64,000 nt of DNA from a virus (Duplodnaviria; Caudoviricetes), in the IMG/VR virus record IMGVR_UViG_3300031867_000005, positions 64,001 through 128,000 of that record. One strand, written 5' to 3'. Both the position numbers and the translations under genes were made by a program. A model generated the notes under the pieces. The model ran no database searches and was not told where the DNA came from. It saw only the letters and a program-made list of their open reading frames with translations. Below are positions 14,157 to 46,119 of the stretch, in pieces. Positions within the stretch are counted from its first letter, which is position 1. Each line of letters begins with the position of its first letter.

Positions 14157-16353
14157 TCAATCATCTAAATCTTCAAAATTTGCATTTTCAAAAATATAAT
14201 TGCGTCTTTCTTCTATATTTTCTCCTAATAAAATATCAAAATACTTTTCTGCGGCCTCAGCATCATTCATAGTGAACTGAATTAGACGGGGTTCTTTTGA
14301 ACAGATAGTTGCCCTAAAATCTTGCGGAGTGCTTTCTCCCAAACCTTTCAATCTGGATATATCACCCTTAGGCAAGGACTTCAGTTCTTCTTCATTATAA
14401 GCATAATAGCACTTCCCCTTTGATTCAACCTTAAAGAGAGGGGTTGCACCCCAATAAACTTTTCCAGCTTGAATAAGTTGAGGATAGAACTTATATAAAA
14501 AAGTTAAAATCAAGCAATTGATGGAGAACCCGTCCTTATCCATGTCTGCGACCAAAACAATTTTCCCATATCTTAATTTCTTTAGATTGAAGTTAGGTCC
14601 ATATCCGCACCCCAAAGCTATGTGAAGCTGTTTTACCTCTTCATTCTTAGCAAGCTTCTCTTTATCATTTTTAAGGGCATTGATTAACTTACCTCTTAAA
14701 TCGAAGCAGGCGGTAGTCATAGCATCTCTTGCTTTTACGATCGCACCCTTGGCCGACTTTCCTTCTACGACGAAAAGCATTGAATTTTCATCATGCTTTC
14801 TACAGTCAACTAATTTTTCAGCTAAAACTACTTTCTTTTTAAGTTCCTTTTCAATCTCCTTATTCTGTTGCAAAATTGCCTGTCTTACCTTATCAGCTGC
14901 TTTTTCTGCTTTCTGGAATTTCTTCATCACCTCAATAACTCCAGAAAAATCAGGAGTATGAGAAAAGTCTTCCAATCCCTCTTTAAAGGCCGCAGAAGCA
15001 AGAGTCCTAAGATTTGCGTTGTTAATCTTCGATTTTGTCTGGTTAGAGAAAGATGGATTTGCAACCTTACAGTTGATCGCATAGACTAAACCCTTACGAA
15101 TCAAATCTGGGTCAAAATCTTGTCCACTTAATCTTTTAATTGTGTTGGTAATAGCAGTCTTAGCTCCTGTAATGGGAGATCCACCCTCAGGCACGACTAA
15201 CCCGTTGACAAAAACGTAAGATTTCTCTTGGCCACCAGTCCAAATGAAAGCAATTTCAATTTCATCAGAATCATCTTTCTTTGAAACAATAATTGGAGCT
15301 TTCATCATTGGCTTACTAAGCTTTTCAGCAATAAAGTCAGCAATACCATTCTTTGAGTAAAATTCCTGTCTTTTTCCAGAAACAGTTTCTACAACAAATT
15401 TAATTCCTTTATTTAGATAGGCAATGTTCTTAATTTCTTCACAAATTCTATCATAAGAAAATCCTTCCGTCATATTCTTGAAAACCTCTTTGTCTGGTTG
15501 AAACATTACATATGTGCCAGTTCCATTTGTAGGGCCGGCTTCTTTTTCAAAAGTTTTAATATCTGTTTCTGAGTAGTTTTCTAAGTTACCTTCGAAGAAA
15601 GAAGCCTCGGCAACTTTTCCATCTCTGAAACTTCTTACCATGAAGTGCTTAGAACTCATACATACTGCAGTGCCACCAATCTTTTGTGTTCAGTAGAGGT
15701 CGCTACTCTCTACTCGGGACTATTACCCAGCTTATAGTTTCCTATAAGAACAGACTATATCTTCTTAGACTCCTTTTTCGGTTCGCTTGAACCTAATTAC
15801 TCAAACACTACAAGTGTTCTTTCAATAGTCGTTGAACGTTCATCAATTAACTTGATGCTTCGCTGCGGGTTATCCAATCCTTAATAATTTTTACCATACC
15901 TCGGTCATTACCCTCGCCATGATAATATTGCTACTATCATTTGGTTATTAAGGCTCTAAGGATTTTCCCGACAATTTAAGAGTTTTTACAACGGCTATGG
16001 TGTTAACCGTTTAAACCTGAACTATTTTTATAAGCATTTTTATCAAACTTACCGCCAGTATGAGCTTCGGTATAAATGGCAACAAGTATATTTCGACCGT
16101 CAATAATGCCAAAAGGCACGCCACGACCTAAATCAGACACTTCAACAGTACTATCTTCCTCATTTAATCTAACTCGAATTTCCTTACCATACCCAGCTAA
16201 CGCCTCGTCTGTTGAGTTATTAATAATTTCTTTTAAAGCCTGATAAATGCCCTCCGTATCATCTGAGCCGAGATACATGGGAACTCTACTTCTTATGGCC
16301 TCTCTGGTTTCAAGGTGTTGGATATTCTCTGCACTATACTTACTTTCAGCCAT
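14157..16353 (-). CDS. gyrB: DNA gyrase/topoisomerase IV subunit B; exons 16353-16006 and 15680-14157
   Basis: EIINNSTDE, DLGRGVP, HTGGKF, spliced SGLNG-IGGTAV, VEGKSA, DMDKDG, RLKGLGE. Confidence 0.92.
15681..16005 (-). mobile_element. Group I intron (325 nt, no ORF) in gyrB
   Basis: P1 AACGGU/GCCGUU; CAACGACUA and AAGAUAUAGUCU core; terminal G; core resembles the phoH intron. Confidence 0.9.
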
Positions 16354-16419: not shown

Positions 16420-17343
16420 TTAATCTTGACTCATTAAATAATTATATAATTCACTATCCTTATCTCTAACATCAAAAGCATCTAAAAAAGCAGTTCTATT
16501 AGGAATATTGGCATCTAAAGTCATATTGCAATACTTATCAATTTCAACACTAATATACTCCTTAATATTAGCTCCAAGTTCCTTTAGACTTATGAAGCCG
16601 CCGCCCATACCATCATACATTGACAATACTAAAATTTCCTCATTCTCAATGTTAGGAATGTTCTTAAGAAAATTTTTAATTACCTCAATCGTCCAACCAT
16701 TACCTAGTTGCTGATAACTTTGATTTTCGCTAATTGGCATTTTAACCCAATCAGGAATTGTCTGTAATTTTCTAGCTTCATTTATTGTTAGTTTTCTAAT
16801 CTTTCCATCAATTAAATAAAGACCAGTTCTTGCGCCAAGGCCGCCACTATTGGCACACATTGTGCAAGATTTTCCTTCAATTGAGTAAACTCGATTCCCC
16901 TGTGAATTTGAATTATTAATATATCCTAAACAAATCATACCAGTTTTTCCTTGCTTAATCTTATCTTTATACTTTATTTCTTTGTCAATAAATTCCCCAT
17001 CATATTTCTCAATTATATCCTTAACATACAAAGGACTTTGTTCCTTAGGGATTTCAACATTAGGAATATTAGTTATATAAAATCTTGCTCGACTTTGAGC
17101 AGAAAACAAATTACTATTAACATTATATCTTTTATAGCCTAATAATTTTTCAATTTCTTCTTTAATTTCCATTGAAGCAGAAGAATTATTCTCATATAAA
17201 AAATAATCAGGTTTAAAAATTTCTTTTGCAATTAAATAATTCTTAAACAACTCCCATCCTTCGCCCTCACATTGAGTTTCTCTATTTTTTTGTGCAATAC
17301 TCCATTTAGTGCAGGGTGAGCCGCCTAGTAACAATTTTATCAT
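16420..17343 (-). CDS. Circularly permuted C5-cytosine DNA methyltransferase
   Basis: Starts with motif IV GGSPC; VI ENN, VIII SAQSRAR, IX, X GNGW; then I SMYDGMGGG and II VEID at the C-terminus. Confidence 0.85.
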   Translation of the reverse strand: MIKLLLGGSPCTKWSIAQKNRETQCEGEGWELFKNYLIAKEIFKPDYFLYENNSSASMEIKEEIEKLLGYKRYNVNSNLFSAQSRARFYITNIPNVEIPKEQSPLYVKDIIEKYDGEFIDKEIKYKDKIKQGKTGMICLGYINNSNSQGNRVYSIEGKSCTMCANSGGLGARTGLYLIDGKIRKLTINEARKLQTIPDWVKMPISENQSYQQLGNGWTIEVIKNFLKNIPNIENEEILVLSMYDGMGGGFISLKELGANIKEYISVEIDKYCNMTLDANIPNRTAFLDAFDVRDKDSELYNYLMSQD

Positions 17344-17349
17344 ATAAAA

Positions 17350-17588
17350 TTATTCCTCCTTATTAGATTTTTCTTTTTCTACTCCTTGTCCTTTATTAAA
17401 ATTTTCTGGAGATACTACAACAGCATCCCTAAATCTACTATAGGTATAGCATTTTTCAGTTACGTCAACATTTTCAATTTCCTGAACAGTCCAATCACAG
17501 TCAATGAACTGTGCGCCCTTACCATCTTCTACTTGTTTAATTGCTTTACCATTTCAGGCGTTAGAATAAAATCCATTACATATTTCAT
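17350..17588 (-). pseudogene. Small ORF with apparent 1-nt frameshift near 17552
   Basis: RBS and MKYVMDFILTPE; protein-like continuation NGKAIKQVEDGK...KEE* lies in the -1 frame and ends at the next RBS. Confidence 0.4.
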
Positions 17589-17610: not shown

Positions 17611-18195
17611 TTATATTTTGAAAAAAATTGCATAATTTTCTAAATCAGGAATGATATACTTTTCACCATTAAAATACTCAAAGGAAACATTAATCAATTT
17701 ATATCCATCATTATAAGGAATTACATGATAGCATTGTTGATTATAACTTCCTCTTAAGTCAATTCCTTTAATTTTTTTGTCTTTTTCATATCTACCATCT
17801 ATTAAATAGTTAATTTTTGTTATAATTTCTTTTCTTTTTCTATTTAACTCATTAGAAACTAGAATTTCATCAACTGTCATTCCTGTATAGAGAATGATTT
17901 CTTTTTTTGAGCCAAATTTCTTTCTTATTTCAGAACAGATTAAATTAACAGTATCAAGATTTTTATAGTATAAAGGGTCTCCACCACTAAGAACAAAATT
18001 CTTTACATATGGTTTATCTAGAGATTCTAGAATTTCTTCCATTACTTTAAAAGTAAATTCTTTTCCGTAATTGAAATCCCATGTTTGGGGATTATGACAT
18101 TCTTCACAGTGATTGGCACAACCACTTACAAAGAGGGTTGTGCTAATACCATGAGAGTTACCAGTATCGAATTTTATTATTTCACTATAGTTCAC
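17611..18195 (-). CDS. nrdG: Anaerobic ribonucleotide reductase activase
   Basis: LFVSGCANHCEECHNPQTW radical-SAM motif, SGGDPL, DGRY, RGSYNQ. Confidence 0.93.
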   Translation of the reverse strand: MNYSEIIKFDTGNSHGISTTLFVSGCANHCEECHNPQTWDFNYGKEFTFKVMEEILESLDKPYVKNFVLSGGDPLYYKNLDTVNLICSEIRKKFGSKKEIILYTGMTVDEILVSNELNRKRKEIITKINYLIDGRYEKDKKIKGIDLRGSYNQQCYHVIPYNDGYKLINVSFEYFNGEKYIIPDLENYAIFFKI

Positions 18196-18280
18196 TTTAT
18201 TCTCTCCTTTTATTATTATTTAATTAAGTTAAAGAGGAACTGCTCTGAGTGAGTTTAGATAGATTTATCCCTATGACAAG

Positions 18281-18317
18281 AAAAAAATAAGAGAGTAGGT
18301 TTAGAACCATACTCTCT
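18281..18317 (-). terminator. Intrinsic terminator ending the ncRNA candidate
   Basis: AGAGAGUA...UACUCUCU stem then UAUUUUUUU. Confidence 0.75.
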
Positions 18318-18882
18318 AAGAACTGCTCCTCGTGTCGTCTGAGATGAGTTCATCCATTGGATATAATGACTTTAACGTGCAGGTATACACGCCTTGAAAC
18401 TGGAAAAGAATATTTCGTCAAAATCCCTGCTTACCATTCTCCTAAGCAGAACCAGTTTCTACGCTTTTCATGGTCCTCCCCCAACTTTTATAGTAATTAT
18501 GTATACTATAGGTCTTAGATACCTTTTTAACTTTTAGATAATTACATTTTTCAAGCGGTCTTTATCTAACGTGTGATTTCTTTCTCACCAGCTCGCAATA
18601 CTATATACAGCATGGAGGAATAAAGTCTATCTCCCGACAGTCCTTATTCCTCTTTTTTGTATCGGAGAGCTGTTTAGAGCATTCCATCTCTCCGTAAGAT
18701 AAAAGATTATCTTAATTTGTCCTTAAACAAAGGACTATTCACTTGTAACCCAATTGTTATAAATTGGAGGTAATCACCAGTTGAGCATCTGGCGAAATAT
18801 TAGTCCACAGACTAAGCTCATTTTTACCGCTAATTTTATGTAATTGAAGTTGGAGTTGGAGTTATCTCTAACTTTTTCTTAC
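18281..18882 (-). ncRNA. Candidate ~600-nt large structured ncRNA
   Basis: No long ORF seen in either code; own promoter and terminator; many local and long-range helices. Confidence 0.7.
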
Positions 18883-18888
18883 AATATA

Positions 18889-18917
18889 ATTATATCATTA
18901 TTTTAATGAAAAGTCAA
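18889..18917 (-). promoter_or_regulatory. Sigma-A type promoter for the ncRNA candidate
   Basis: TTGACT-17-TATAAT with extended TG. Confidence 0.8.
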
Positions 18918-21900
18918 TTAATTCAAATGCTTTACCCTATTAGCTAGATCTTCGCTTCTACCTTGGTTAGGGGTATAGTTACTGATGTAGCCGCAGATCC
19001 TATAACTCGTATGAACTTTTTCTGGGTCTGTTTCCCCACAACATGGACATTTCCATCTTACAGTTCCATCTTCTGCAAACACTTTCTCAAAATCATATCC
19101 TTCAAAACCACAAACTCCACAAGTTGAAATTTCAGAGTTAATTTCAGCATACAAACATTCATTACTAATATGTTCAATTATTTCTAACATTGCATCTATA
19201 TTGTTGCTCATATTAGGAACTTCAACATAGGAAATTGAACCGCTTAATGTTTTATTACTAAATTGAGCTTCATCGGTTAATTTAGTGAAAGCATCGACTT
19301 TATCTTTTACAAAATGATGGTAAGAATTTGTAATATAATTACGTTTAGTTCCATCTCCAACGTGTCCAAATTTATTAATACAAGCTTTAGCAAATTTATC
19401 TGTTAAAGTTTCCATCATTTCTACCCTCGGTTTCCCGATATTTATTAGGGGATTAGACTATATCTTTATCTCAATTAAGATACCTTACATTTCGGTTTTT
19501 TGATATTATCTCACCTACATTTCACCCTATGATTGGGTCTACTCAGTTCTACAATATTGTAGCTTTTCCCTAGTCGTTAGACATTTATTAATTATTATTC
19601 ATTATTCATCATACTCAAAATAATATCCAGTTCTTGAAAAATGGACTGTCTTTTTACAATGCCGAGAAATAGTGCTTACACTTACTCCATATTTTTTAGC
19701 ACATTCACATATCGAGCCGATATGATCTATAATTTCACCATTAGAATTTAAAACACGAACAGGATGAGACTAAGAATCTTCATAGCCTTTAGTGTTTACT
19801 ATTAATCCATCATCATGTGCTTTCTAAGAATTTTCAGAATATGTTGTCCAATATAAATTTTCAATTCTGTTATCGGTTTTTATATTATTCATATGCCCAA
19901 CTATTGGTAAATTTTCTGGATTTGGAATAAAGGCCTATGCTATTAATCTATGTATTCTACAAGAATGATTTTTTCCATCCTTCATAGTAACATTACAATA
20001 TATGTATCCACTTGGCATTATAATTCTATTCTTTTTAGGAATAAATAACTAATTTGAAGTCAATTTATAAACATGACCATTTTTTGAAATATAATCCGTT
20101 TCACTTCCTTTAATTAGAATTATTTTTCCTTCGTTCTTTTCTATTTCTTCCTTAGCTAAAGTTCCATTTACAATAGCTTATCACCACCTTTTTTATTTAA
20201 ATGAATAATAATTAATTTTAGTACGGTGTTATCTCTGCCCTCTCGGGTTTAGAATTTCTTACCAGCTTATTTTTTTTATTCAGCTATGACCGTTTAGTAA
20301 GGATCGCTTTAATAATCACTTATTAAAGCCCCATGATTTTAGGAGTTCCATATAAACCAGCGGCCAATCCAGTATTTTTCTTAAATTCTGCATTTGAGTT
20401 ATTGAGATAATCAAGAATTTTATGAGCTAATACTTTACCTTTTCCTTCAAATTGATTTTCTCCAGTAATATATTTAACACACTCATAAAGTCCTGCATAT
20501 CCCAATGAAATTGATGGACGGCCGCTATAAACTTCTTTTTCAAGTGTATCTTCTGGGTTGAGTTTTGTTAGTCCACCAAATACCCACAGTAAAGGAGACT
20601 GACCAGCTTTAATCTTAGCAATATGGTTGGCACGCCATAACATATCTCTATGAGCAATGTCAAGATAGTAGTCAAGATTAGAGAAAAGAATTTCTTCCTT
20701 TCTGTCAGGATTATTTTCCATTGCAATAAAAGGAAGATTTAAACTTTGAACTCCAAGATTCCATCTGCCCCATAATTCATGAGCATTAGTTTCTGGATTG
20801 ATATACTCGTGTAATAGTGATCTACAACCCATCGGAGGCGTAGGAACACCTTTTAGTTCCTTATGAATCTTAACGCTCAAATAATCAGGAACTAATCTCT
20901 TTGCACTACACTCCGCACACAATTTTGTTATATCATAGTATTTCCCTCCTTTCATTGTATCCTCATCAAGAAAATACAAAATCTTTGGGAAATTAGGATT
21001 CGAATAAATACCATTCTTTTGCTTAATTCCTTGGATTCTTTGTTTTATAAATTCCTTAAAAACAAGAATTAAATCCTCAGTATAATTACTATCCTCATTT
21101 AACCAAACAGAAACAGATAAGAACGCCGCTTGACCTGTCCCAGCACAAAGAGTATTATTCTGATATAAAAAGGTTTGCATACCATCCTTAATTTCATTAG
21201 ACAAGTCTTCTTCAACCATTGCTTTCTTTACAGCGTCATCTACATTATATTTTTCGTATTTCTTTTCAAACTTCTTTCTACTTACATCAACAAATTTAGC
21301 AAGATGAAGAAGATTGATGGTTATACCCCCAAACTAAAGGTTAGTACTATGAGTGAGGACCTAAGTTGCTACCGTGCAAGCTGTTCTAAAACTCTTTGGC
21401 TTTTCAATCCAAATGCCATTAATCTCACAACCTTTAAACAATTCTTCTAGGTTTAAAAGACAACAGTTTGACATAGGTCTTGCACTATAGGCCATATCAT
21501 GGAAGTAGACTGCACCCTTATCATGAGCTTCCAAGCAATCTTTAGGAAGCATTTCTCTCATAAATTCCTTACTAGGAATCTCAGCTAAATAGGCACTTTT
21601 AATATGAGTTAGATTGGGGTTCTTGTTACCGTTTTCCTGAGCAATTTCAGGACTTACAAACAAAACCTTTTCGATTTCAGTTGGATTAGTCAAAGCTTTC
21701 TCCTTTTTTACTTTATAAGAACTATATTCTCTCGCTACTTGGGGCGGTGCCTCACGATAAAGGACACTCATTACCAGATTTTCAATCCTATTATTCTCAA
21801 TTTTATTATCCTTTGCGTAAAACCAAATTAAATCTTCAATTTCATCTACAATTGTATCAATTTCTTTAAAGTTAGGATATGTTACTTGGTTATAAGACTG

Positions 21901-21969
21901 AATAATTGCATTTCTAATCTTATTACGGTCATACTTCTGTATCAACCCATCTTCTTTGATTACTTCCAA
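18918..21969 (-). CDS. nrdD: Class III anaerobic ribonucleotide reductase; exons 21969-20341 and 19415-18918; TAG=Gln at 21361 and 21334
   Basis: ATP cone, YFHD, SNCCL, VAT[Q]...NL[Q]FGG, PMGCRS, spliced YGTP-METL, Zn site, RICGYI glycyl loop. Confidence 0.95.
19416..20340 (-). mobile_element. Group I intron (925 nt) in nrdD carrying an HNH endonuclease
   Basis: Exon ends CCU; IGS AUCAUGGGG; CUAACGACUAG and AAGAUAUAGUCU core; terminal G; frame restored. Confidence 0.9.
19602..20174 (-). CDS. Intron-encoded HNH homing endonuclease, about 190 aa; 4 TAG=Gln; probable ATT start
   Basis: IHRLIA[Q][29 protein letters not shown]...ENS[Q]KA; RBS AGGTGGTG. Confidence 0.85.
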
Positions 21970-21997
21970 AACAATCAACTCCTTTTCTTTTTTTTAA

Positions 21998-29094: not shown

Positions 29095-29994
29095 TCAAAT
29101 CTCTCCTAAAATCTCATATTTTCTTTTATCATACTCCCAATTCCCAAAAAAGTCAATATGAAAACCATATTGTTGTCTTAAATTAGAAGGTATTATATAA
29201 TTATTTATATTATCTTCTTGTGGTAAGTTAGCCCAATTCTGTAGACTAAAAAGAAAATTAATATCATCTAAAAGCTAAGGCTTTTCCTTTTCATAATAAT
29301 AGAAAACTAATCCTTTATAGTCTTCAATCTATCTAAGTAACTCTTGGTCTTCTTCAATTTTTCCAGTCAATTTAATTAATGCTAAATTATTAATATGTAA
29401 TAAAAAATAATTATCGCCCCATTCATTATTTTTTCCATTTAAAAACTTCACAAAGGAGACAATTTTTTCATCATTAAACTAAATTTTGTCTTTTTTTAAA
29501 TATCCAATATGATAAAAAATCTATGAAGTTTGAATCTACTCAGGGGTAAAATCTATAAGAGGTTTCCAAGTAGGACATAGGAAATTCTTAAATTTTTTCT
29601 TATCATCTATTACATTATATAGAGGATTAACTGGCTATACAATTATACACTATTTTTTTCTTTGAAGAGAATTAGTCTTTAAAATACTAATTCTTTTATC
29701 TTTACCTAAATATTTTTTAGTATTAAGAGTTTTTCCTAATATATAAATTTGAAAATTGAACTAACAAATTGCCTAAATATTTTTTAATATTTTATAACAA
29801 ATTAAACTCAACAGGTCATCCTTATAATCAATAATAAAAATACGTTCGGAACAGTTTTGAAATTGAAATTCAAAATTATTCATTTTTCTGTTAATTAACC
29901 AATTTGTTTGTTCTTCAATAGACCAATTTTTATTGGGATAATATTTTAAATTTAAATCGTATAGAACCAATTTTCGTTTTGCTTCAACGAGCAT
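29095..29994 (-). CDS. Hypothetical protein, 299 aa; about 9 TAG=Gln
   Basis: RBS GAGGTG; readthrough ends at TGA directly before kinase ATG. Confidence 0.75.
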
Positions 29995-30025
29995 TTATAT
30001 CACCTCATCTTCACTCTCTAATAAA

Positions 30026-30190
30026 AGTATATCAAAAAATAAGGAAAAAGTCAATATATTTATCAAAGAAGAGATTGTTTGTTATTGCGTAGCAATAACA
30101 AACAACAGATTACTTTTACGAAGTAAAAGTAATCTGAGAACAAAGTATTGATATTATATATTTGACTTTTTTTAAAAAAAATGTTATTAT
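30026..30190. promoter_or_regulatory. Divergent sigma-A promoter pair at the strand switch
   Basis: Minus TTGACT(30054)-17-TATACT; plus TTGACT(30162)-17-TATTAT. Confidence 0.75.
30075..30136. repeat. Two abutting perfect 14-bp inverted repeats with 3-nt loops
   Basis: TTGTTTGTTATTGC-GTA-GCAATAACAAACAA and CAGATTACTTTTAC-GAA-GTAAAAGTAATCTG. Confidence 0.92.
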
Positions 30191-30213
30191 ATTAATATAA
30201 GGAGATGATTAAA

Positions 30214-35373: not shown

Positions 35374-35569
35374 TTTGAAGTAAAAATTTGTGATTTTTTA
35401 AATTAGCAGATAACATATGTTAGGTAGTAGCGAAATAGGCACGTCTGTAAGAATAAGAAACTCCTAATTTCAGGCAGAGACTTAAATATCGTTCTTCTTA
35501 TGAAGTCGCTCCATTTATAGAAGTGGGACTCAAGTAAAGATAGTAATATATAAAAAAAGAGGTGATAAA

Positions 35570-37858
35570 ATGGAGCTTACTAACAAAAAAATACTTTTTG
35601 AGAGAAAAGACGCTGGAGTTAATAGTAATATTCATCCTTATCTTGAAATAAATGCAAAAGAACATAAGGAAGAAATAAAAGAAGGCATTGAAATAAAAAG
35701 TGATAATATTTCTATTGTAGCTTCAACTAGAATAGGAGATTATGATTTAGATATAATTCACCCTCGTATTCCAGATTTAAACTGTTATGCTTTTAATTCT
35801 GAAAAGGTAGGAGATGGGAAAATTAATGCAGAAGATGCGTCTTTAATTCTTCAAATCGCAAGCACTGTAGCAAAAGATTGTCGAGGACATAACGTTGGTT
35901 TTTTAGAAATTAAAGATAAAAATATGAATGTTGTTTTTGAAAGGAAAATGGTTGATTTAGATAGACTTGAAGAAGATTGGGGAATTGATTTTACAAAAAG
36001 TCCATATGCTGAATATACTAAAATAATTGAACCTATTTTTAATAGAAAATAGACTTGGAGAGCAGATGCCAGTTGGAATAGTTTTGAAAATATTTTTCTT
36101 CCAATTACAATTCGTGATGCAATATTGGTAAATAATTATGCTGCTTATAGAGGAGCAGGTGAGCCATTAGTAATAAATTTTGAAGATACAAGCGAAAAAG
36201 ATTGGGGGAAATTTTTGAAATTAGTTGATGAAAGGGAGCTTTCTTTGAAAGCAGAAGTTATTCCCTTTTCTTATTTCTTTCCGGCTGTAATAGATATGTC
36301 CAAAATAACAAAAGAGGATTATGATATAATTAAAATAGCTTATGAATAGAAATAGAATGGAATCGCATTTGAAGATTGCATATTAGCTCAATATAAAGTT
36401 AATCCAAAATGGGAAGAACATTATAACAATGGAAATATATTAAAAACAAAAATCTATAATTTTGATTTAATAAAACATTTTCTAGGTCTTTGTGAAATGA
36501 AAACATTGATGAAACCGCAAGGATATTATACTGATGAAGATGGAAAACCTTATGGCACTCCTTAGGGATGGAAGGACTATATAGAAAGAGAATTTGGCAC
36601 ACTTTCTGCAATAAATATTGAAAATATAGAATTTATTTTTACTGATAAGGATAACTATTCAGAAAAATCAATTAGTCCTTTTGGCGAAAACAATCAAATA
36701 TCTTCAGTCATTAGTGATACATCTTATAATGTTAAAGGAGTTGGAGGAATAGAAATTATTTCAGAACTTGGTGGTAATGTCTAGAATACAGCTGAAAAGA
36801 ATGGAGAAATTAAGTTGTCTTTAAGTCAACTTCATGATTATTCTGAAGATTTAGGAGAATTGTTATCTCCTATAAATTATCAATTAGATATATCAGAAGA
36901 ATCAGGTTTACAAAGTCAATATTATCTTTATCCAGAAAGTCCCAGCTATTATTTCAGAGGGAAATATAATTATGAGTATGATGAAAATACCAATACTTTA
37001 ATATCATAGAATATAGAAATAAAAAACGATGATAAGGCTATCATTACAGTTAATATGCCTTCATTGCAATCTCAAATTACTAATGAAGTAGAAGTTATAG
37101 ACCCTTTGCCAAAATTAAGAAGTTTTTCATTATATGTAAAGAATAATAATAATGAATGGGTTACGCCTGGTGGAATCAATTAGCGACAAACTACTGGTAC
37201 AGATAACGCAGGAATACCTATTATGAAGCAAAATGATATTATTGGGAGACCTCTTTATCTTAATTCTGGTAATGAAAAAGGAATTATTTCTTATCATATA
37301 GACAGGTTAGGACGTTTTTCAAATGAACTAATTGAGTCAGGAAGATAGTATTATCATACAAATGAAACTCCTTTTAATCCTACCACAGAAGAATATTTAA
37401 AAATTGAATTAGCTTTTAATGGCATTCCAAATGAAGATTATAAATTGCCACAAGTTGATAATTATACTTCTAATAATTCAGAAATTTATTGGTCTTGTTA
37501 GTTAAATAATTTAAAATTAAATAATACCATTGAAATTATTGAAGCCGGACTTGAGAATGATATTGTTCCAAAAGAAGTCAGTCCAAAAGGATTTTATACG
37601 ACAACAGGAAGAGAAATCGTATTTTATTGTATTGTAAAAATAAAAGGAAATATTGATAATTCTCCTATAACACAAGAAGGTTCAATGTCTATAACAGATT
37701 ATTATGATTATTCATACAGAGACAATTTGTATTCATAGATTGCCTATCCTTTGGTATTTACTTTTAGACATGATACAGAAGAATCTCCTAATGGAGAAAT
37801 AATAAATTTTGGAGAAAAAATTTATATTGATTTATTACTATAGAAAAAGGAGGTGTGA
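35570..37858 (+). CDS. Large putative virion protein with dockerin-like motifs, 762 aa; about 11 TAG=Gln
   Basis: Single frame under code 15; GDGKINAEDASLILQ motif. Confidence 0.75.
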
Positions 37859-37864
37859 TTAGTA

Positions 37865-39064
37865 GTGTCATTAACTCCAGATAAGGTTGAAAAAATTAAT
37901 GGTGTTACTGTTAAATAGTATTTTTTGACTAAACATAATATAAATAAAATTTCAATGCCATCAATTGCTATGACAAAACCAATTGGGATAACCATTCATA
38001 ATATGGAATCTATTAATACAACTTCTAATATTTCTCCAGCAGAACAATATACTAATGCAACTATAAATGACAGTATGGGGACTATTAGAACACATTTTTA
38101 TATAGACGAACTTGGAGCGTGGCAAAATCTTCCTTTAAATTTAAGTGGCTGGCATGCAGCAGATGGAAATGGCGATGGTAATAAATTAACTATTTCTTTT
38201 GAAATAATAGGAAATTCACTTAAAGCAGAAATTAATGCAATTAAACTAGCAGCATATTTTTTAAAAAAGTATGGAAGAACAGTTGAAAATGGTCTTTTTA
38301 CTCATACTTATTGGTTCAATATAAAAGATGGGAAAAAAGGAGACATAGATTATTTGAATACTTTATATAATTCAAACAAAATTTGTCCAGCTTATATTAT
38401 TCCTCATTGGTCTACTTTCAAAGAAAAAGTAAAAGAAGAATTTGAAAAATTGCACGCTACAATTAACCAGAAAGATACTATATCTTCTTTACTTAATGAA
38501 AATCTTTATAGAATAAGAAAAAAATGGAATGAGCCAGAAACTGAGATAGGAGCTTATCCTTCTCTTGATATTGCAAAAAAAGAATTTAAAAAAGGCTATT
38601 TTATTTATGATTCCAAGGGAGTATAGATTTATCCAAATAAAATTTTAGAAAAAGAAAAGATTGATGTTTTTTATCGAGTATTTTCAAAAGACAGTTGGAC
38701 TCCAGAAATAAAAAATTTAGAAAATCATGCTGGTATCGAAAATAAAATAATGAGTGCTATTTCAATTAAGACTCTAAAAGGACAAATTCGTTATAGAGTG
38801 CATTAGTTCAATTCAAATTGGATGAATTGGATTTATGATTACAATATAAGTAATGTAATTACTGGATGTGCCGGCCTACCAGGAATTCCAATAGATGGAA
38901 TCTAGATTCAATATATTGGAGAAGATGGTTATGATGTAAGATACAGGGGCGCCGCACGAGGTCAAGATTATTATCAATGGGTATACGGAAAAGATTAGAA
39001 TAAGTTTGCCGGATATGCTGGGAAATATCTTGATAGACTTTAGATTGAAATTGTAAAGGAGTGA
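37865..39064 (+). CDS. N-acetylmuramoyl-L-alanine amidase with ChW-like C-terminal repeats; 6 TAG=Gln
   Basis: ITIHN, HFYID, GWHAADG, ISFEI, THTYW...KICPAY; YRVH...W...IDGI[Q]I and DRL[Q]I. Confidence 0.85.
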
Positions 39065-39069
39065 TTTAA

Positions 39070-39597
39070 GTGGGAAATTTGAGTGCTCATTTTAATGATT
39101 ATGAATTTGCTTGTAAATGTGGATGTGGAAGAAAAACAATTTCTAAGGATTTGATTAGTGGTCTTGAGAAAATTTTTTCTATAATGAATGCAAAAGCTAT
39201 TATTATAACTTCTGGTTTTCGCTGTCCATCCTATTCTGTTAAAATTGGTGGTTATAGTGATGATGCACATACTATTGGCATTGCTGCTGATATTAAGGTT
39301 AAGAAATAGGATGGAAGTTATTATACTCCAGAACAAGTTGCTGAGGCAGCAGAAAGAGCTGGTTTTGGTGGAATTGGTTTAATGAATACTGCTTGTCATG
39401 TAGATAGGAGAGATTTGGGCGGTTATAAAAACTCCCATTGGTTTGGAGATGAGAGAACTGGGAATAACAGGATTAGCACATTTCAGAAAGGAACTAACTT
39501 TGATAGTTACTCTATCAGCTCTTCTCAAACTTAGTCTTTTTCTCATGAGGTAAAAGTAACAATTGATGGTAAAGAAGTTTATAAAGGCATTATTTGA
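39070..39597 (+). CDS. Peptidase M15 family cell-wall hydrolase; 2 TAG=Gln
   Basis: HFNDYEFACKCG, ITSGFRC, H..GIAADI, CHVD. Confidence 0.88.
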
Positions 39598-39664
39598 ATA
39601 GGTAATAATGGGGAAAATATTAAATATTTTCCCTTTTATTTTTACTTTTTGGTAGACTAAAATC

Positions 39665-39693
39665 TTGACTTTCTCAATGTTTTGAGATATAAT
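39665..39693 (+). promoter_or_regulatory. Sigma-A type promoter
   Basis: TTGACT-17-TATAAT. Confidence 0.7.
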
Positions 39694-39713
39694 AATGTTA
39701 AGGAGGGGTGAAA

Positions 39714-40037
39714 ATGTTAGAGCTTTTAGGTGCGTCTTCTAGTTCAGTGTTGGGTGGACTTGGGGCTTTGGCCGCAATTGTTAGTATAATTGTTGAAATA
39801 TCTAAAGCTTTTATTCCGAAAAAAATTCCCACTGCTTTAGTGACTTTAATTGTTTCTTTAGTGGTCTGTATCGCTTTTGTTCTTATATTTTTTGAAATTA
39901 CGGTAAAAGCTTTAGTGTTAGGATTTTTCATGAGTTTTATTGTTGCGTATACAAGTATGAATGGTTTTGATACGTTGACAAGTATATGGAAAAGATTTTA
40001 GATTATTGAAAAAGAAGGTGGTGAGAAAGATGAGTGA
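39714..40037 (+). CDS. Putative holin (3 TM); TAG=Gln at 39999
   Basis: IVSIIVEISK...KIPTALV...FIVAYTSMNGFD; next to lysins; charged tail after readthrough. Confidence 0.65.
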
Positions 40038-43000
40038 AAATACCAATTGGTATAATAATCTAGATGAAACACAAAAGGAATATGTGAGAGGAATTTTTTC
40101 GAATAATACAAGTGGAGAAATGCCAGATGATGTTTTAAATAAGATGTCAAAAGAAGATTTTTGGAAGTATTTATTGGGTTATTTAAATGATAATCACCCA
40201 TTAAAAAATGATAATGATAGTTTTGTTGACGGTTCATTTGCTAAAGTTGTAGGTGAAAAAATTGATTATGAAGTTGAAAATAATAAGAATAGTTGGAATG
40301 ATTCTGTTTAGGATTTAATATATGGATTGAGAAAAATATTAGAAAATATAAAAAAATATAAAATAAATAATAATGGAAAAATTTGTGGAAGTGATGATTA
40401 GGAAATTACCTTTAAAACTTTTACTACAGAATTAGCAGCCTTTTTTGCAAAAGTGGGAAATGCAGTATATTCTCTTGATAGTATTCCATACGTAAGTCCA
40501 CCATAGAATTATTCTGGAGAAACTTATAAAGAAGTTAGAGGAAAAGACATAATTCCAGATGGAATAAAACTTAAAGAAGGAAAGTATTAGGAAACTAATA
40601 GTTTACAAAAAATTGATAATTCACAAGAGAATTCTGATAACTCACAAGAAAATTCTAATGATTCACAAGAAAATTCTAATGATTCACAAGAGAGTTCTAA
40701 TGATTCACAAGAAAATTCTGATAACTCACAAGAGAATTTTTGGGTAAATCTTTTGATGCCGAAATATTCAAAAGAAATTGAGGTCGAAGATTTAAATAGA
40801 AATTTTTGGGTTATTAGCCAAGTGCTTTCAGCATTATCTTGGTATTTATTTCAAGACGGTTTAAAAAATAATTTAAAAAATAATTTAGCTGATATAATTA
40901 ATGAACTAACTCAATTATGGGATAATGTCATACTTTTATGGGCGGCCCTAGCAAAAAATTTATAGAATGAAAATACTGATTTGATTCATTACGAAGTTTT
41001 ATATTTGAATTAGCCAAATAGTTATTCTCATACAATGAAGTTTGATAATTTTGAAAAAGAGGGAAGCTATTTTATAATTGATGAAGATAATGGGACGGCT
41101 GATATAAAATGGGATATTATACAAAAAGAATATGAACAGATAGTTTCTTTAAATCCTTCTTCAAATTTAGTAATCGCACCGGTCATTAGAATTGGAAATT
41201 ATAAGAAAAACTATTATAACTGTGAATACTGGCCGGGCTTGTCTTTTTATAGTAAAGGAACTAGACAATGGATTCATAAGGAATTTCTCGTTGATTCAAA
41301 TAGTGATAAAACTGAATATTATTCTGATTTTGTTGAACCCATATATAAAATATATGAAGAAAATGGGAAATATACTTATGACAATTAGATAATCCCAAAA
41401 AATGGAATTTATATTGATTTAAAAGCTCCTTCTTTACAAGAATAGACTGTAGCAATACATGAAAATGAGTTAAATTATGAGTATATAGAAAAACTTTCTA
41501 ATACTAAATTGAATAAAAAAGAAAAAGTCTATTATGGATTATTAAGAACAACTTTCAATTTCAATATGGAAAAAGAAACTACAATCATTGATGAAAGTGA
41601 AGAAGAAATTGAAAATTTAAAAAATATATAGCTTTAGATTGAAGATATTACTAGAACAAACGCTTATGGCGAGGATAGTAAAATTATATTAAATAATGTT
41701 GAAAATGGTATTTTAGTTAGTAATGATTTGTTCTTAGATTTTGAACACAATGAATATGGAACAAAAACAGAAGGAGATTTTGATACTAATATATTATTTA
41801 AAATTAAAAGGGCAGACAATGAAGAAGAAGAAGAAGAAGATTCTATTACAGAATATATTACAAAATATCGCTATCCCGGAACAGATAAATATTGGGCTTA
41901 GATAAATGTATATGCTAAAGAAAGAAATTCTAATGATGAATGGCAAGAATTATTACCGCCCGCAGCTTCTTCAGACGTTAATTTAACTACTTATAAAAAT
42001 GACCATTATTATTATTTAACTTCAAATAAGGATTTTACACCTTTTAACGGGCGAACACTTTAGGATGTATTAACTTATTATTTTGGAGAAGGCTCGGGAG
42101 TTGCCAATAATCATAATTTTTTTCATGTTGATAGTAATTTTTCAATGATTGATCCTGTTTTTAAAATAAAAATTATAGGAAAACTTAATAAATATCCAAT
42201 AATTCCTATGACAGAGACAGATGAATTATTAGAATTGGATGATTAGATTCCTGATGGGGCATTGAATACAAAATACTGGAGAGAATTTTTAGGTGATGAG
42301 GCAGATTTAATTGCAATTAATCGAATTGAAGAGGTTGATTTATCTGAATTAGAAATACAAGATATAGAAAATAGCCAATAGGATTTTTTGAGTTTTATGA
42401 AAACTTTTTCTTTCTATGATGAATCTGGTTTAAATTCAGAATGGAAATAGTTACCTGAACTTAAAAGTATTAATGTTAATTGCGATATTTATGATATAAC
42501 AAATTAGGGAATTGGTACATCATCTAGTCTTGATTTAACAAATCTTCAATATAATCTTAGTTTAGAGAAGCTTGCTTTTGTTACTAACTATATAGATGAT
42601 ACTGAATTGTCTATTCCAACTTATGGAATAAATGAAAAGCTAACTATTTAGCCACAGGAATTAATATTAAGGGGTAAATTTTTAATAAAAGAAAATATTA
42701 TTTCTGATGAAAAATATTCTGATAATTTGTCTCTTTTAAAACTTGATTTAACAGATTTCATTGGAGAAATAGATGAAGAAAGTTTTTATGGGAATAATAG
42801 TCTATATGAAGTAAAAATGCCTAGCAATAAAAAAGGGAATTCAATTTTTGGAATAAATGTATTTGACGTTGATGATGACTCTGCCTCATAGATTGAAGAA
42901 TTAAATATATATCCAAAAACGACAATAGTAGTAAATGATACTTCCACTTTTGGAGATAATAGATTATATAAAAAAATTATTATTTATTATAATACTTTAA

Positions 43001-46000
43001 ATGAAATGTATAGATATTAGAATTATTTTGATTCAAAATACGGAGACTCTGTTGAAATAACTTACTTGCCAATTAATAATGGTGAAGTTAAAATTCATAA
43101 TGGGGTTTTTGGATATTATTAGGGAGAAATAATTAGTAGTTGGAAATATATAGAACAAGAAAAAATTAGTGTTAATAACTGGATAATTAGAGGACTTCCT
43201 TTTTATTTAGATAAAGAAGTTATCCTTCCGTCTGAGTAGAATAGTAATATTGGAACAAATGTTTGGGCAAAAAATAGTAATGGAAAAAATAGTAATACAA
43301 AATTTTTTGAGAGTGGAATTGATAATTATGGCGTATGGAGTAATGGTTCATTTTTGCAAGGATTTTACACAAATGAAAATACAAATGGCTAGATAAACGT
43401 ATAGTCTGGAAAAGATTATTTAATTAACAAAGATTACATTTCTAACTTTATAGATTTTATTTGCGATATGTATCCAAATCAAAAAATAAAATAGCTTTTT
43501 AAAAAGAATGATGAAAACATTAAATATATGGACGCAATTAGTCTATATTCAGAAGCTTGCGAAATTCTAAGAAAAAAAAGATAGGATTCTGGCGATAGAT
43601 CTGAATCTTTATATTATATTAGTTTATATAATGAAAATGGAAATCTCTATTGGCCGCTAGCTAAAAAAGATAATAATAAATGGAGTCTAACTTAGATTAT
43701 AGATAATACTTATTAGAATCCAATTTCATTAAGCGGCGAAGGATATAAAATTCATTTCTATGGGAGTTCAGTAACAGGAGCAGATGGAAATATACAGTGG
43801 AACACAACGGATAATGAAATGGCTACGTTATCCATAAATCCTTCTAGTAATAATAATGATGATTATTTATTTACTTTTACTTATAAACTTTTTTTGTCAA
43901 ATTTAGAGGATGAAGAACAAAAATATTATGATGATATTTTAATAATATTTTTATTATCAATTTGTATTATATGTGGTTAGAGTGTTAAAATTAATTTTTG
44001 GAACTTTGTGCCGCCGGGCCAAGCTGGAATACAATCAATAGTTGAGGATTAGGTTGCTCGCAGTTCTTCAAGTTCTCCTAATTATTACATCTATGATTTT
44101 GTAAAACAAGAATCTAATATAGCTAATAATTCTGTTAATAAAAAACCATTTTTTTCTTATAGTGACTTATTAAAAGAAAGAGAAAATCAATTACTTGAAT
44201 TATATTATTCTTTCAAAGAGAAAGAATTAAAAAAAGAAAAGACTTACAAGCCAGAAAAAAGATTAGATTGCTATTCTTTAGAACATTTTTAGGAAGGCAT
44301 TTACAACAAAAGCTTTTTAGAGGTGTCTAGAGCAGAAAGAAATTTTTTGCCAAGAAAAGTGTTGATTTTTTCAAAAATTGATGGACTTGAGTTTTCTTTT
44401 GACAGAGATGATGATGGAACTTTTATTACTTTAATAGTAGATTTGTCAAAGGTATCAAATTTTAATCCCACAAATCTATACCTGTATTTAAAAGAAGACG
44501 AAACAGAAACAATTATAAATTATAAGAAACAAGAATCAAATAATAATGTTTATAAATTTTATTATGATTTTAAAGCCTTCAGTGGATGGTATTATTTTAA
44601 AATTAAATAGAGTAATGAAATTTATGATGCAACTTACAATTTTTGTGTAAAGCAATTAGAAAATGATTCTCTAGAATTGAATTATAGTTAGGGAAGCTTA
44701 CAAATCTTTCCATATTTAAGTATAGGCGGATATGATAGGGATGGATTAATAGTAAAGACACCTTAGGGAAAAAAATATCACATTGATAATACTGGAACGG
44801 TAAAAACTGCTTATAATTCTAATCTTTGGCAATGGGGAACGCAGAGGGATGTTGAGGTAGAACCACATAATTTAGATAGAGATTAGGGTATCTAGTCAGC
44901 AAGAATTTTTATTAATGATAACGATTATGAAATGTCTGAAGATAACTGGGTTTTAGAAATTATAGATTATGATACTTACGAAAAACCGAGAGATCATTTT
45001 ATTGCCCCGTCTTTTTCATAGAATGACGGACTTAAACTTAATTCATCAATTACCTTGAATAATAATAATTATTTTTATCCTGAGTTAAAGGAATTTTATT
45101 ATGATTTAAGCATTAAATATCCATCAATTACAATTGATGAATTACTTAGTTCTGAATATAATGATATAATTGATAGTAAATACAACAATTATGGAGATAA
45201 AGCATCAATCAAAGAATCTTTAGAGAAATGGAGAGAATATATTAATATATTTTATATAAAGGATACTGAAACAAATTTGTATTTTTTAAGAAAACAAAGT
45301 GACTTATCTGAAAATTATATTAGTCCATTGCTTAACGATGATATAAATGTTCCTTGGCCGCTAATTAATAGAAATGGAGAATAGGTTGTGGGAATATTAG
45401 GTTCTGTAGTTCAATTAATGATAAGAATTCTTACTCCTAATTCTAATGGAGAATTATTGGATATTTGTCATTATGATTTATATAAATACGACTGTAGAGT
45501 TAATAAGGCTTCAAATATAGATTTAGAAAGAATTTATAATAATGTAGATTCATTAACAGACCCGCCAATAACTAATACAGCAAATGAAGAAATTTGTAAG
45601 GTTGGATATTTTGATAGAAATTACAATAGAAATCTTCTAACTCCCTATGGAGTTAGCAGTTCATCATAGAATTCTACCAGTTCTTTAGATAGTTTTACTC
45701 TATATGAAAGAGGACAATGGATTTCTTTATATAAGCAGAATACCAATATTAGTCTTAACGATAGAATAAAACATAATGGAGATAATTATGTATTATATTC
45801 ACAAAGTAATTAGATGACAAGTAATAATACAAAAATCATAAATCCTGAAAAAGCAAATTTTTCTTTTGATTTTTCAGCGTATCCATCTAATGGATTATAT
45901 GAAAAATATGTTCCTCATTGGAAGAATGAACGTGTTAATATAAAAGATGGAATTAATTTTTATGTATTAAAAATTGATGGACTCGTTTCTGAAAAAGCTA

Positions 46001-46119
46001 ATCTACCAGAAGAGTTCAAAACGACTTGCGATTATGGAGAGCTCTCTGCTCCGCCATTAATTGATTTTAAAGAATTATTTAGCAATGCTACTTATTATGG
46101 AGAGGATAATAATGGCTAA
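40030..46119 (+). CDS. Giant putative virion/tail protein, 2029 aa; about 39 TAG=Gln
   Basis: No in-frame TAA/TGA over 6090 nt; LLMP...EVEDLNRNFWVISQ domain; LRR-like central segment. Confidence 0.85.
40615..40737 (+). repeat. 21-bp coding tandem repeat x6 (DNSQENS)
   Basis: GAT/AAT...TCACAAGA(A/G)AATTCT units. Confidence 0.9.

Follow-up and report, generated by a model that had tools for sequence, protein, structure and literature searches.

A probable ~600-nucleotide structured non-coding RNA upstream of nrdG in a rumen phage that recodes TAG

The stretch of DNA analyzed here (the window) comprises 64,000 nucleotides (nt), bases 64001-128000 of the complete virus record IMGVR_UViG_3300031867_000005, a rumen phage genome of 178,685 base pairs (bp) and 31% G+C. 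On the minus strand of this window, 722 nt separate the nrdD stop codon (18918) from the GTG start of nrdG (18195), and this space holds a compact cassette (at 82.3-82.9 kb of the genome) that consists of a promoter, a ~600-nt element, and an intrinsic terminator, followed by a short leader to nrdG (Table 1). We conclude that the cassette very probably specifies a real structured non-coding RNA, and that this RNA is the type of a previously undescribed family of large structured phage RNAs, comparable in kind to ROOL and GOLLD and a member of neither.

The promoter (TTGACT, 17 nt, TATAAT) matches the consensus at 11 of 12 positions and in addition carries the TG of an extended -10 box. The first ~45 nt of the cassette, which contain this promoter, match ~10 other places in the genome, all on the plus strand between 131 and 160 kb, and the cassette promoter thus appears to belong to a phage promoter family that is read by the host polymerase. 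Those ~10 copies (TTGACT, AT-rich spacer, TGnTATAAT) precede small genes (L002-L008), and this right-arm region of the genome is probably an early gene cluster. At the other end of the element, RNA nt 566-593 (18317..18290) form a bulged terminator stem of 12 bp (pair probability 0.91-0.97), followed by UAUUUUUUU; a simple terminator scanner made no call at this stem, with the bulge as the probable reason. Both signals are kept in the homologues described below, where the -35 box and the extended -10 box are invariant around a variable spacer, and where every copy has a hairpin with a U-run at this position, albeit with a different upper stem. The near-consensus promoter and the terminator that an earlier note on this DNA had read from the letters alone are therefore both borne out. 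The 85-nt leader between terminator and nrdG is ~70% identical in the homologues.

The element is closed to translation. The longest minus-strand open reading frame (ORF) that overlaps it has 32 amino acids, and each frame of the 722-nt region carries 12-19 TAA or TGA stops, so that the absence of a long ORF, as claimed previously, holds under any reading of the stop codons. An alternative code that would open an ORF here was rejected accordingly: TAG is recoded in this genome, but TAA and TGA close every frame even with TAG read as sense. Translations of the region with its stops read through gave no Pfam or PHROGs match at E ≤ 1, and tblastn of the element in six frames against the genome and related loci returned nothing below E = 1. 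The sole mini-ORF with a Shine-Dalgarno sequence and an AUG encodes MKSVETGSA and then ends in TAG, and a 1-nt indel shifts its frame in the homologues. The G+C fraction of the element (0.36) lies above that of the genome (0.31), but the excess over other spacers that the earlier note had remarked on is modest, as ORF-free gaps elsewhere range from 0.20 to 0.37.

Homologues of the element were found in other phages. When IMG/VR was scanned for GGACTGTCGGGAGATAG, the sequence at the tip of the longest hairpin, 19 loci came back, and a full-length homologue is present in two of these (nhmmer E of 3e-79 and ~74% identity to the RNA). One is L035, on a contig of 21 kb; the other is L038, whose 179,787-bp genome is complete and carries terminal repeats. 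To these were added L057 (identical to L038), L058, L059 (a 40-kb Logan contig), and L060 (a partial copy), where L059 and L060 came from NrdG look-ups; across all homologues, E-values span 3e-79 to 1e-194. The homologues are 90-98% alike mutually and 73-76% identical to the RNA of this phage, and they represent four further phage sequence variants, one of them partial. Further pattern scans of viral and metagenome sequences, and a hidden Markov model of the five sequences run against the loci examined, gave no additional family member, and L054-L056 and L062-L064 were discarded as chance matches. Likewise, nothing in GenBank phages matched by blastn, whether the query was the whole element, its hairpin Hf, or the L041 motif in its context, while two exact-pattern scans of 596 Gb of prokaryote genomes gave 0 matches and hence no clue to the host.

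The homologues, whose collection the earlier note had proposed as a check on the pairing, display covariation. When the minimum free energy (MFE) structure of this phage's sequence alone (172 pairs) was mapped onto L038, 98 pairs were unchanged, 11 were kept by a one-sided change and 21 by a two-sided change, 30 were broken, and 12 fell in gaps. Controls in which the 3' partner was slid by 1-3 positions kept 2-8 pairs through two-sided changes, compared with these 21. A second count was confined to 14 curated helices (97 pairs), all of them in register in alignment A3. Here, 97.8% of the cells are paired, versus 38-50% in slid controls and 92.7% in shuffles, and 25 pairs show two-sided changes, versus 0-4 in slid controls and 6.6 ± 2.1 in shuffles (none of 500 reached 25). 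The core helices of the 5' domain (helices 2-9) are 96-100% paired and contain 13 pairs that changed on both sides, and one of the helices affected by covariation spans 270 nt. Helix P3 reads AGCGGU/ACCGCU in this phage, AGCACA/UGUGCU in L038, and AGCAUA/UGUGCU in L058, such that three of its six pairs changed on both sides between this phage and the L038 clade, with a further wobble change in L058. The stem of hairpin Px (helix 10) differs in each lineage (AGAUAA/UUAUCU, AGGG/CCCU, GGGAG/CUCCC), with four pairs changed on both sides and 83% of cells paired. Hairpins Hc, He, and Hj show three double changes each, and stems Hk and Hl (helices 13 and 14) are 100% paired, with a swap of G-C to A-U in Hl in two lineages. 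As we read the alignment and the folds, three unrelated sequences occupy the hairpin position at nt 491-508, each of them able to form a stem.

Two further observations bear on strand and selection. Ten conserved G-U pairs would turn into C-A mismatches if the opposite strand were the transcribed one, which identifies the minus strand as the RNA strand. In nucleotide identity to L035, the RNA (76.0%) is level with the last exon of nrdD (75.5%), the coding segment that is conserved best, and stands above the N-terminal part of gyrB (70.6%), nrdG (65.8%), and gyrA (63.9%); this would not be expected of a neutral spacer and points to purifying selection.

Folding of the 602-nt RNA yielded an MFE of -171.5 kcal/mol (z = -7.0 relative to dinucleotide shuffles), whereas the plus strand of the same region folds less well (-152.3, z = -5.65). 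In a G+C-corrected fold scan of the whole genome, the RNA core ranks 17th of 2380 windows of 300 nt: it is structured, but not uniquely so at that scale. The predicted fold is multi-domain, with a 5' domain of about nine hairpins that is held by P3 and the pseudoknot-forming Px, and a 3' domain built on one long hairpin; since the loop of Px holds the 3' strand of P3, the two helices would form a pseudoknot. The dense pairing proposed earlier is reproduced in the MFE structure, which contains every helix on the previous list, most of them at pair probabilities of 0.85-1.0. The homologues lend support to GUCCUU/AAGGAC, to UAAGAUAA/UUAUCUUA, to the GAGGAAUAAGG hairpin with its GGGA loop, to CUGCUUA/UAAGCAG nested in GAAACUGG/CCAGUUUC, and to the long-range pairing AGCGGU/ACCGCU. 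Other helices survived in part: for CGUGUA/UGCACG, a hairpin is kept at the position in the homologues but its sequence there is unrelated; CGGAGAG/CUCUCCG is present in the MFE structure but has a competitor in the alternative helix CAGCUC/GAGCUG; and CUCCAACUU/AAGUUGGGG is kept in the homologues but only with register shifts. One of the three proposed long-range helices, UUCGCCAG/CUGGUGAG, lacks support from the homologues, as its 3' partner becomes CCGGCGA in the homologues while UUCGCCAG is unchanged. On our reading of the alignment, this change tightens one pair and breaks another, and the local hairpin UCGCCAG/CUGGUGA, which competes with this helix, is nearly invariant. The long-range helices predicted from L038 by itself and those from RNAalifold (AAUCACAC/GUGUGAUU) were also rejected as family features: they are not conserved in this phage, and, judged from the alignment and folds, mismatches pile up in them in L059 and L060.

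Between the covarying stems lie blocks that do not vary at all, either in loops and junctions or as stems that never change: hairpin Hb and the following UUACCUCC, the junction ACAAGUGAAUAG, GGAAUGYUCUAAAC, the GNRA hairpin tip, GCUUGAAAAAYG in the Px loop, GGGGAGGRCCAUGAAAA, the loop GGAGAAUGG, and GAACUCAUCUC. Two of them (the loop GGAGAAUGG and the linker GGGGAGGRCCAUG) resemble Shine-Dalgarno sequences that lie too near an AUG for translation initiation, and one holds the anti-Shine-Dalgarno core CCUCC. In the loop of hairpin Hi, the 7 nt read AUCUAAG in this phage and AUCUAUA in the homologues.

The 17-nt tip of hairpin Hf, AAGGACUGUCGGGAGAUAG, is invariant across the RNA family, and the tip with its GNRA loop was also found in at least seven unrelated IMG/VR contexts, once per genome (Table 1). 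These contigs are mostly from GC-rich phages (the longest 38-41 kb), and the tip is intergenic in them, just upstream of what appear, from N-terminal sequences alone, to be capsid, scaffold, or tail genes. In each unrelated case the tip caps a hairpin, with different outer stems and with the A.A mismatch replaced by A.G or A-U. The tip gave 0 matches in the 596 Gb of prokaryote genomes and in GenBank phages, is covered by no Rfam family, and occurs in no paper searched; a multi-copy phage promoter was rejected as its identity, given the single copy per genome. This shared hairpin tip is the most concrete lead to a partner of the RNA. About 1 kb from the shared tip of L037 lies a type-P5 twister ribozyme (L037:2781-2834, minus strand; 43.6 bits, above the gathering score).

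Table 1. Coordinates of the cassette, its neighbors, and other features (positions in the window unless a locus or the genome is named)
Feature	Position	Strand	Description
Promoter	18889..18917	-	Sigma-70/sigma-A-type with extended -10, TTGACT-17 nt-TGnTATAAT; begins right after the nrdD stop codon
~600-nt non-coding RNA	18281..18882	-	From the putative start G, ~7 nt past the -10 box, to the end of the terminator U-tract
5' domain core, RNA nt 62-294	18589..18821	-	Hairpin array Ha-He, then helix CAGCUC/GAGCUG around Hf and a small hairpin
Hairpin Hf, nt 231-268	18615..18652	-	11-bp stem, A.A or A.G mismatch, CUGUC/GAUAG stem, GGGA (GNRA-type) tetraloop
P3 5' strand, nt 52-57, AGCGGU	18826..18831	-	Partner is nt 324-329
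P3 3' strand, nt 324-329, ACCGCU	18554..18559	-	Inside the loop of hairpin Px
Hairpin Px, nt 316-321 with 342-347	18536..18567	-	Stem covaries
Adjacent hairpins Hi and Hj	18490..18524	-	Helices 11 and 12; Hi stem invariant, Hj stem covarying
3' domain long hairpin, nt 424-487	18396..18459	-	Stems Hk and Hl, invariant loop GGAGAAUGG
Intrinsic terminator	18281..18317	-	12-bp bulged stem and U-tract
Leader, 85 nt, AT-rich	18196..18280	-	Terminator to nrdG start; weak promoter-like site and nrdG Shine-Dalgarno sequence
nrdG, anaerobic ribonucleotide reductase activase	17611..18195	-	Pfam Fer4_12 and Radical_SAM
nrdD last exon, glycyl-radical domain	18918..19418	-	Upstream neighbor of the cassette in this phage only
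Group I introns	15731-16015	-	Rfam
Group I introns, other loci	L024:6495-6712, 18491-18785; L025:14921-15228, 17126-17455		Rfam
TAG-rich frames (examples)	39979-46119; 35504-37858	+	
TAG-rich frames (example), L025/L026	Genome 37299-43124		
Shared tip sites	L041:789-805; L042:6964-6980; L045:4137-4153; L044:4978-4994; L040:1960-1976; L039:6729-6745; L037:3824-3840		

To look for known RNA families, the whole genome, window included, was compared with Rfam 15 (4227 families) at gathering thresholds; positions 18000-19100 of the window and L059 2700-3600 were also compared at E ≤ 10, under permissive filters. At gathering thresholds, no family fell on the RNA in the window. The E ≤ 10 scan returned chance-level matches to microRNA and untranslated-region models for the RNA of this phage and, similarly, nothing above chance level for the L059 homologue (24% diverged). 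The covariance models of ROOL and of GOLLD (its conserved 3' half) and the riboswitch and T-box models (T-box, cobalamin, SAM, and all others) gave no match at E ≤ 10 in either sequence. These scans, which the earlier note had suggested, agree with its statement that the RNA could be assigned to no family and may be new. The location also differs from the tRNA islands of ROOL and GOLLD: the 64-kb window contains no transfer RNA (tRNA) gene, and those of the genome lie at 132.7-137.7 kb and at 153.8 kb, at least 50 kb away. A group I intron was rejected as the identity of the element, which has no Intron_gpI match at E ≤ 10, follows a complete nrdD ORF with its stop codon, and has its own promoter. 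A sponge of the CsrB/RsmZ type, which would bind CsrA, is not favored either: GGA occurs 13 times versus 8.5 ± 2.5 expected, with six occurrences conserved, an excess of just ~1.8 standard deviations. The best Rfam match of L059 was PrrB_RsmZ (17.6 bits for a gathering score of 44, E = 0.13), and the copy of this phage had no such match. Searches of the literature on the hairpin sequence, on an nrdG-associated RNA, and on new ornate phage RNAs found nothing relevant.

Relatives of this phage show what the locus looks like when the cassette is absent. As the earlier note had supposed, the RNA splits an otherwise tight nrdD-nrdG pair: the nrdD stop lies ~13-16 nt from the nrdG start in L018-L020 (whose NrdG is 64% identical to that of this phage), L021/L022, and L009. 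Relative to L018, the cassette is a ~705-nt insertion placed exactly between the nrdD TAA and the nrdG AAGGAG. No homologue of the RNA was found at the nrdD-nrdG locus of nine IMG/VR relatives and of the closest ENA/Logan relatives (L018-L023, L031-L034, L061), where nhmmer and blastn detected the shared promoter only. By these alignments, the cassette is a precise insertion that is without counterpart in several close relatives. In all six homologue contexts (L035, L038, L057, L058, L059, and L060) it stands directly upstream of nrdG, while its upstream neighbor changes: it is nrdD in this phage, a methylase gene in L058, and, in both L035 and L059, a pair of small genes (141 and 76 amino acids). 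L061 shares this pair with L035, but there nrdG follows at once, without the RNA, and in L032 and L033 nrdD is followed by a hairpin and then a methylase gene. The conserved linkage is thus with nrdG and not with the nrdD-nrdG junction, and the cassette is a discrete, patchily distributed unit on the 5' side of nrdG.

Other insertions occur around nrdD. Right after nrdD in one relative (L031:7715-8620) we found a ~900-nt gene with CxxC pairs and several in-frame TAGs, probably a free-standing homing endonuclease, which shows the position behind nrdD to be a hot spot for insertions; in Vibrio phage ICP1, an annotated homing endonuclease lies between nrdD and nrdG. The nrdD gene of this phage is itself split by a 926-nt intron (window 19416-20341, minus strand), as is evident from a relative in run X4 that joins 19415 directly to 20342. 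In an ENA genome that is nearly identical, an HNH_3 gene is called between the two parts of nrdD, and the Rfam group I model gave no match on this intron. The N-terminal 556 codons of nrdD (window 20323-21993, minus strand) form one frame only if two TAGs are read through, so that an apparent second gap at 21220-21360 reflects recoding rather than an intron. In relatives (L018:2140-2400, L031:7389-7640, L032:1795-2045, and L033), a ~250-nt insert without an ORF, probably a group I intron, interrupts the glycyl-radical motif RICG/Y of nrdD; this phage lacks the insert at that site. Elsewhere in this genome, five group I introns reach the Rfam gathering score (55-99 bits; Table 1), and one of them splits gyrB. 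In a genome-wide scan of 300-nt windows, the segments L028:11851-12150 (plus strand), L030:8551-9000 (both strands), and window 29901-30200 (minus strand) fold more strongly for their G+C than the RNA described here (residual z of -3.2 to -3.75) and may hide further RNA genes or DNA hairpins.

The genome in which the cassette lies reads TAG as sense in its late and structural genes, a pattern described by Borges et al. (10.1101/2021.08.26.457843). In the regions 0-55 kb and 85-115 kb, opening TAG raises the coverage by long frames from 15-50% to nearly 100%. As many as 56 TAGs stand in frame in single late ORFs (one frame of 2046 codons has 39 and one of 1941 codons has 56), and the replication genes gyrA, gyrB, the methylase gene, and nrdG carry none. 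No tRNA with a CUA anticodon was found in the complete genome with ARAGORN (default or relaxed) or Rfam.

Expression data are limited to public assemblies. Parts of the stretch are contained in seven bovine-gut runs from seven studies, two of which are metatranscriptome libraries. Run X2 holds a 904-nt contig identical to 18312..19215. It takes in the greater part of the RNA together with the promoter and a portion of nrdD, and it breaks off inside the terminator's 5' arm. Run X5, an RNA library, holds a 195-nt variant contig. These contigs from RNA libraries are a weak hint that the RNA is expressed. Run X2 has no identical contig over nrdG or the DNA downstream of 18312, which is an absence of cover only.

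Taking these data together, we favor, with a probability of about 0.6, the reading that the locus harbors a new ~600-nt non-coding RNA gene in a self-contained cassette, whose product is released and acts by its shape. The host polymerase would transcribe the RNA from the early-type promoter in early or mid infection, the RNA would be released at the terminator as a free-standing molecule, and its shape would then let it serve a partner from the cell or the phage as a scaffold or decoy. Candidate contacts are the GNRA hairpin tip, the two Shine-Dalgarno-like purine motifs, and a hairpin with an ACCUCC block. Because Shine-Dalgarno-like motifs and an anti-Shine-Dalgarno core are among the invariant blocks, our best guess for the partner is some component of the machinery for translation or RNA processing, to which the RNA would be a scaffold or decoy. 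For the component claim that the RNA is free-standing and acts in trans, and is not a leader of nrdG, our preference is a modest one.

Several points weigh against this reading. Regulation in cis would account equally well for a cassette that is strictly linked to nrdG and for a leader that is conserved behind the terminator. The family appears small, with two deep lineages and five distinct sequences, four of which are 90-98% alike; with effectively two deep lineages, most covariation events would represent one ancient split counted once, and the curated helices were picked because they are conserved. In the fold of the single sequence, the helices lying furthest out (P1, P2) are kept in the homologues only with register shifts. 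Finally, assembled contigs show neither ends nor strand nor abundance and could stem from contaminating DNA, and the X2 contig crosses the promoter into nrdD, so that it isolates no 600-nt species.

The alternative that survives best, although we consider it unlikely, is that the cassette is a giant cis-acting leader of nrdG, resembling an attenuator or riboswitch, in which transcription would begin at the cassette promoter, a ~560-nt region would sense a factor, and the terminator at 18290-18317 would gate read-through. Such a leader would account for the position directly upstream of nrdG in all six contexts despite the varied upstream neighbor, and for the ~70% conservation of the segment between terminator and nrdG, which contains only a weak promoter-like site. 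The invariant GAACUCAUCUC near the terminator might moreover pair with the nearby GAGA/GAGG or with the 5' arm AGAGAG of the terminator. However, no known leader comes near this size or complexity, all Rfam riboswitch models are silent at E ≤ 10, and the nrdG of relatives abuts the preceding gene without any leader, so that the gene needs no special control. The linkage itself may reflect a single ancestral insertion that was inherited by two lineages.

Far less probable is a translation-related RNA tied to the TAG recoding, with a topology like that of transfer-messenger RNA (tmRNA): the 5' domain closed by a terminal helix, then a 5-bp hairpin with U-CUA, similar to an amber anticodon, in its 7-nt loop, a further hairpin, and a conserved RCCA. 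This would suit a phage with up to 56 TAGs in its late genes and no CUA-anticodon tRNA found; conserved elements include AUCUAAG in the Hi loop, the block AAAGGUAUCUA, and GGRCCAUG, and the order of the elements can be read as matching the tRNA/tmRNA topology. Yet ARAGORN found nothing in bacterial mode, even with the large insert removed, and noise only in mitochondrial mode, and the tRNA and tmRNA models of Rfam are silent. At the equivalent of tRNA position 37 the L038 clade has U, the RNA lacks both a variable loop and the T-loop consensus, and the CCA is internal, ~190 nt from the 3' end. Moreover, L018 and L031 have genes with in-frame TAGs but lack the RNA. That the RNA helps this phage to manage the decoding of UAG seems to us a slim prospect.

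Two further alternatives are weaker still. A decayed mobile gene (a free-standing homing endonuclease) or a neutral insert with fortuitous structure, for which the insertion hot spot after nrdD (the endonuclease-like gene of L031, and ICP1) and a genome rich in introns and endonuclease genes might speak, is largely refuted by the absence of protein similarity in any frame, a nucleotide identity (76%) equal to that of the best-conserved coding exon, the 25 compensatory pairs, and the conserved promoter and terminator. A very divergent ROOL, GOLLD, OLE, or group I or II intron missed by the covariance models, conceivable from the same size class and ornate look, the rumen phage source, the phage-borne nature of ROOL and GOLLD, and models insensitive enough for that of group I to miss the 926-nt nrdD intron, is highly improbable given that none of 4227 Rfam families matched at E ≤ 10 in two sequences 24% apart, and that the element lies far from tRNAs and outside any exon (hence no intron), with its own promoter and terminator.

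Returning to the released, shape-acting RNA, we can tentatively go one step further and consider it the first known example of a new class of large, ornate RNAs in phages, one that has its own biochemical role and is built on the module GG-A-CUGUC-GGGA-GAUAG-N-CC. We regard this as possible, at odds below even; if true, the sharing of the GNRA module with unrelated phages would imply a common partner that recognizes it. To our knowledge, only a handful of such large RNAs are known (ribosomal RNAs, RNase P, tmRNA, group I and II introns, OLE, GOLLD, ROOL, raiA, and HEARO). Each known class has opened up new biochemistry, the latest example being the RNA-only nanocages that ROOL and GOLLD form, and a new, unrelated class would offer a defined object for work on structure and partners, with clean boundaries, covariation, and natural presence/absence variants. 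Either the TAG recoding or the tip shared with unrelated phages could point to the function of the RNA. More generally, ORF-free gaps in recoded, intron-rich phage genomes merit a check for RNA genes before they are written off as junk or wrongly called under code 11.

Known systems resemble the cassette to different degrees. Operons of nrd genes can carry leaders, for example cobalamin riboswitches upstream of nrd genes, and the cassette shares with riboswitch and attenuator leaders the order of promoter, structured RNA, intrinsic terminator, and nrd gene. Unlike them, it matches no aptamer family, relatives run nrdG without a leader, and the RNA is, as far as we know, three to five times larger than any known leader. 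With tmRNA it has in common a terminal helix, a large pseudoknotted insert, and a hairpin before the 3' strand, followed by CCA, whereas it has no detectable tRNA-like domain or conserved tag frame, and its CCA is internal. The PeSL cassettes that Arbiol et al. reportedly described in 2010, promoter/stem-loop bounded mobile units of T4-type phages, likewise have an early promoter at the 5' side and a terminator stem-loop at the 3' side and are present or absent between conserved genes in a patchy manner, but they carry small protein genes where the present cassette has a structured RNA of 560 nt and no ORF.

Among large ornate RNAs, OLE is similar in length (~600 nt) and elaboration, and the present RNA likewise has invariant blocks between covarying stems. 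OLE, which is thought to act as a ribonucleoprotein scaffold, is chromosomal in anaerobic Bacillota and linked to oap genes, whereas the RNA described here is phage-borne, has no Rfam match, and is linked to no protein gene except nrdG. ROOL was first seen in rumen metagenomes, the expression of GOLLD rises in phage lysis, and both are phage-borne (10.1101/2024.12.08.627333). In contrast to these two, the present RNA lies in a nucleotide-metabolism and replication module directly upstream of nrdG, its loops, read by eye, contain no palindromes of the kind that form the kissing loops of ROOL and GOLLD multimers, and its family is tiny so far. What it shares with them is the 500-800-nt size class, the many hairpins, the multi-helix junctions and pseudoknots of its predicted fold, and its encoding by a phage.

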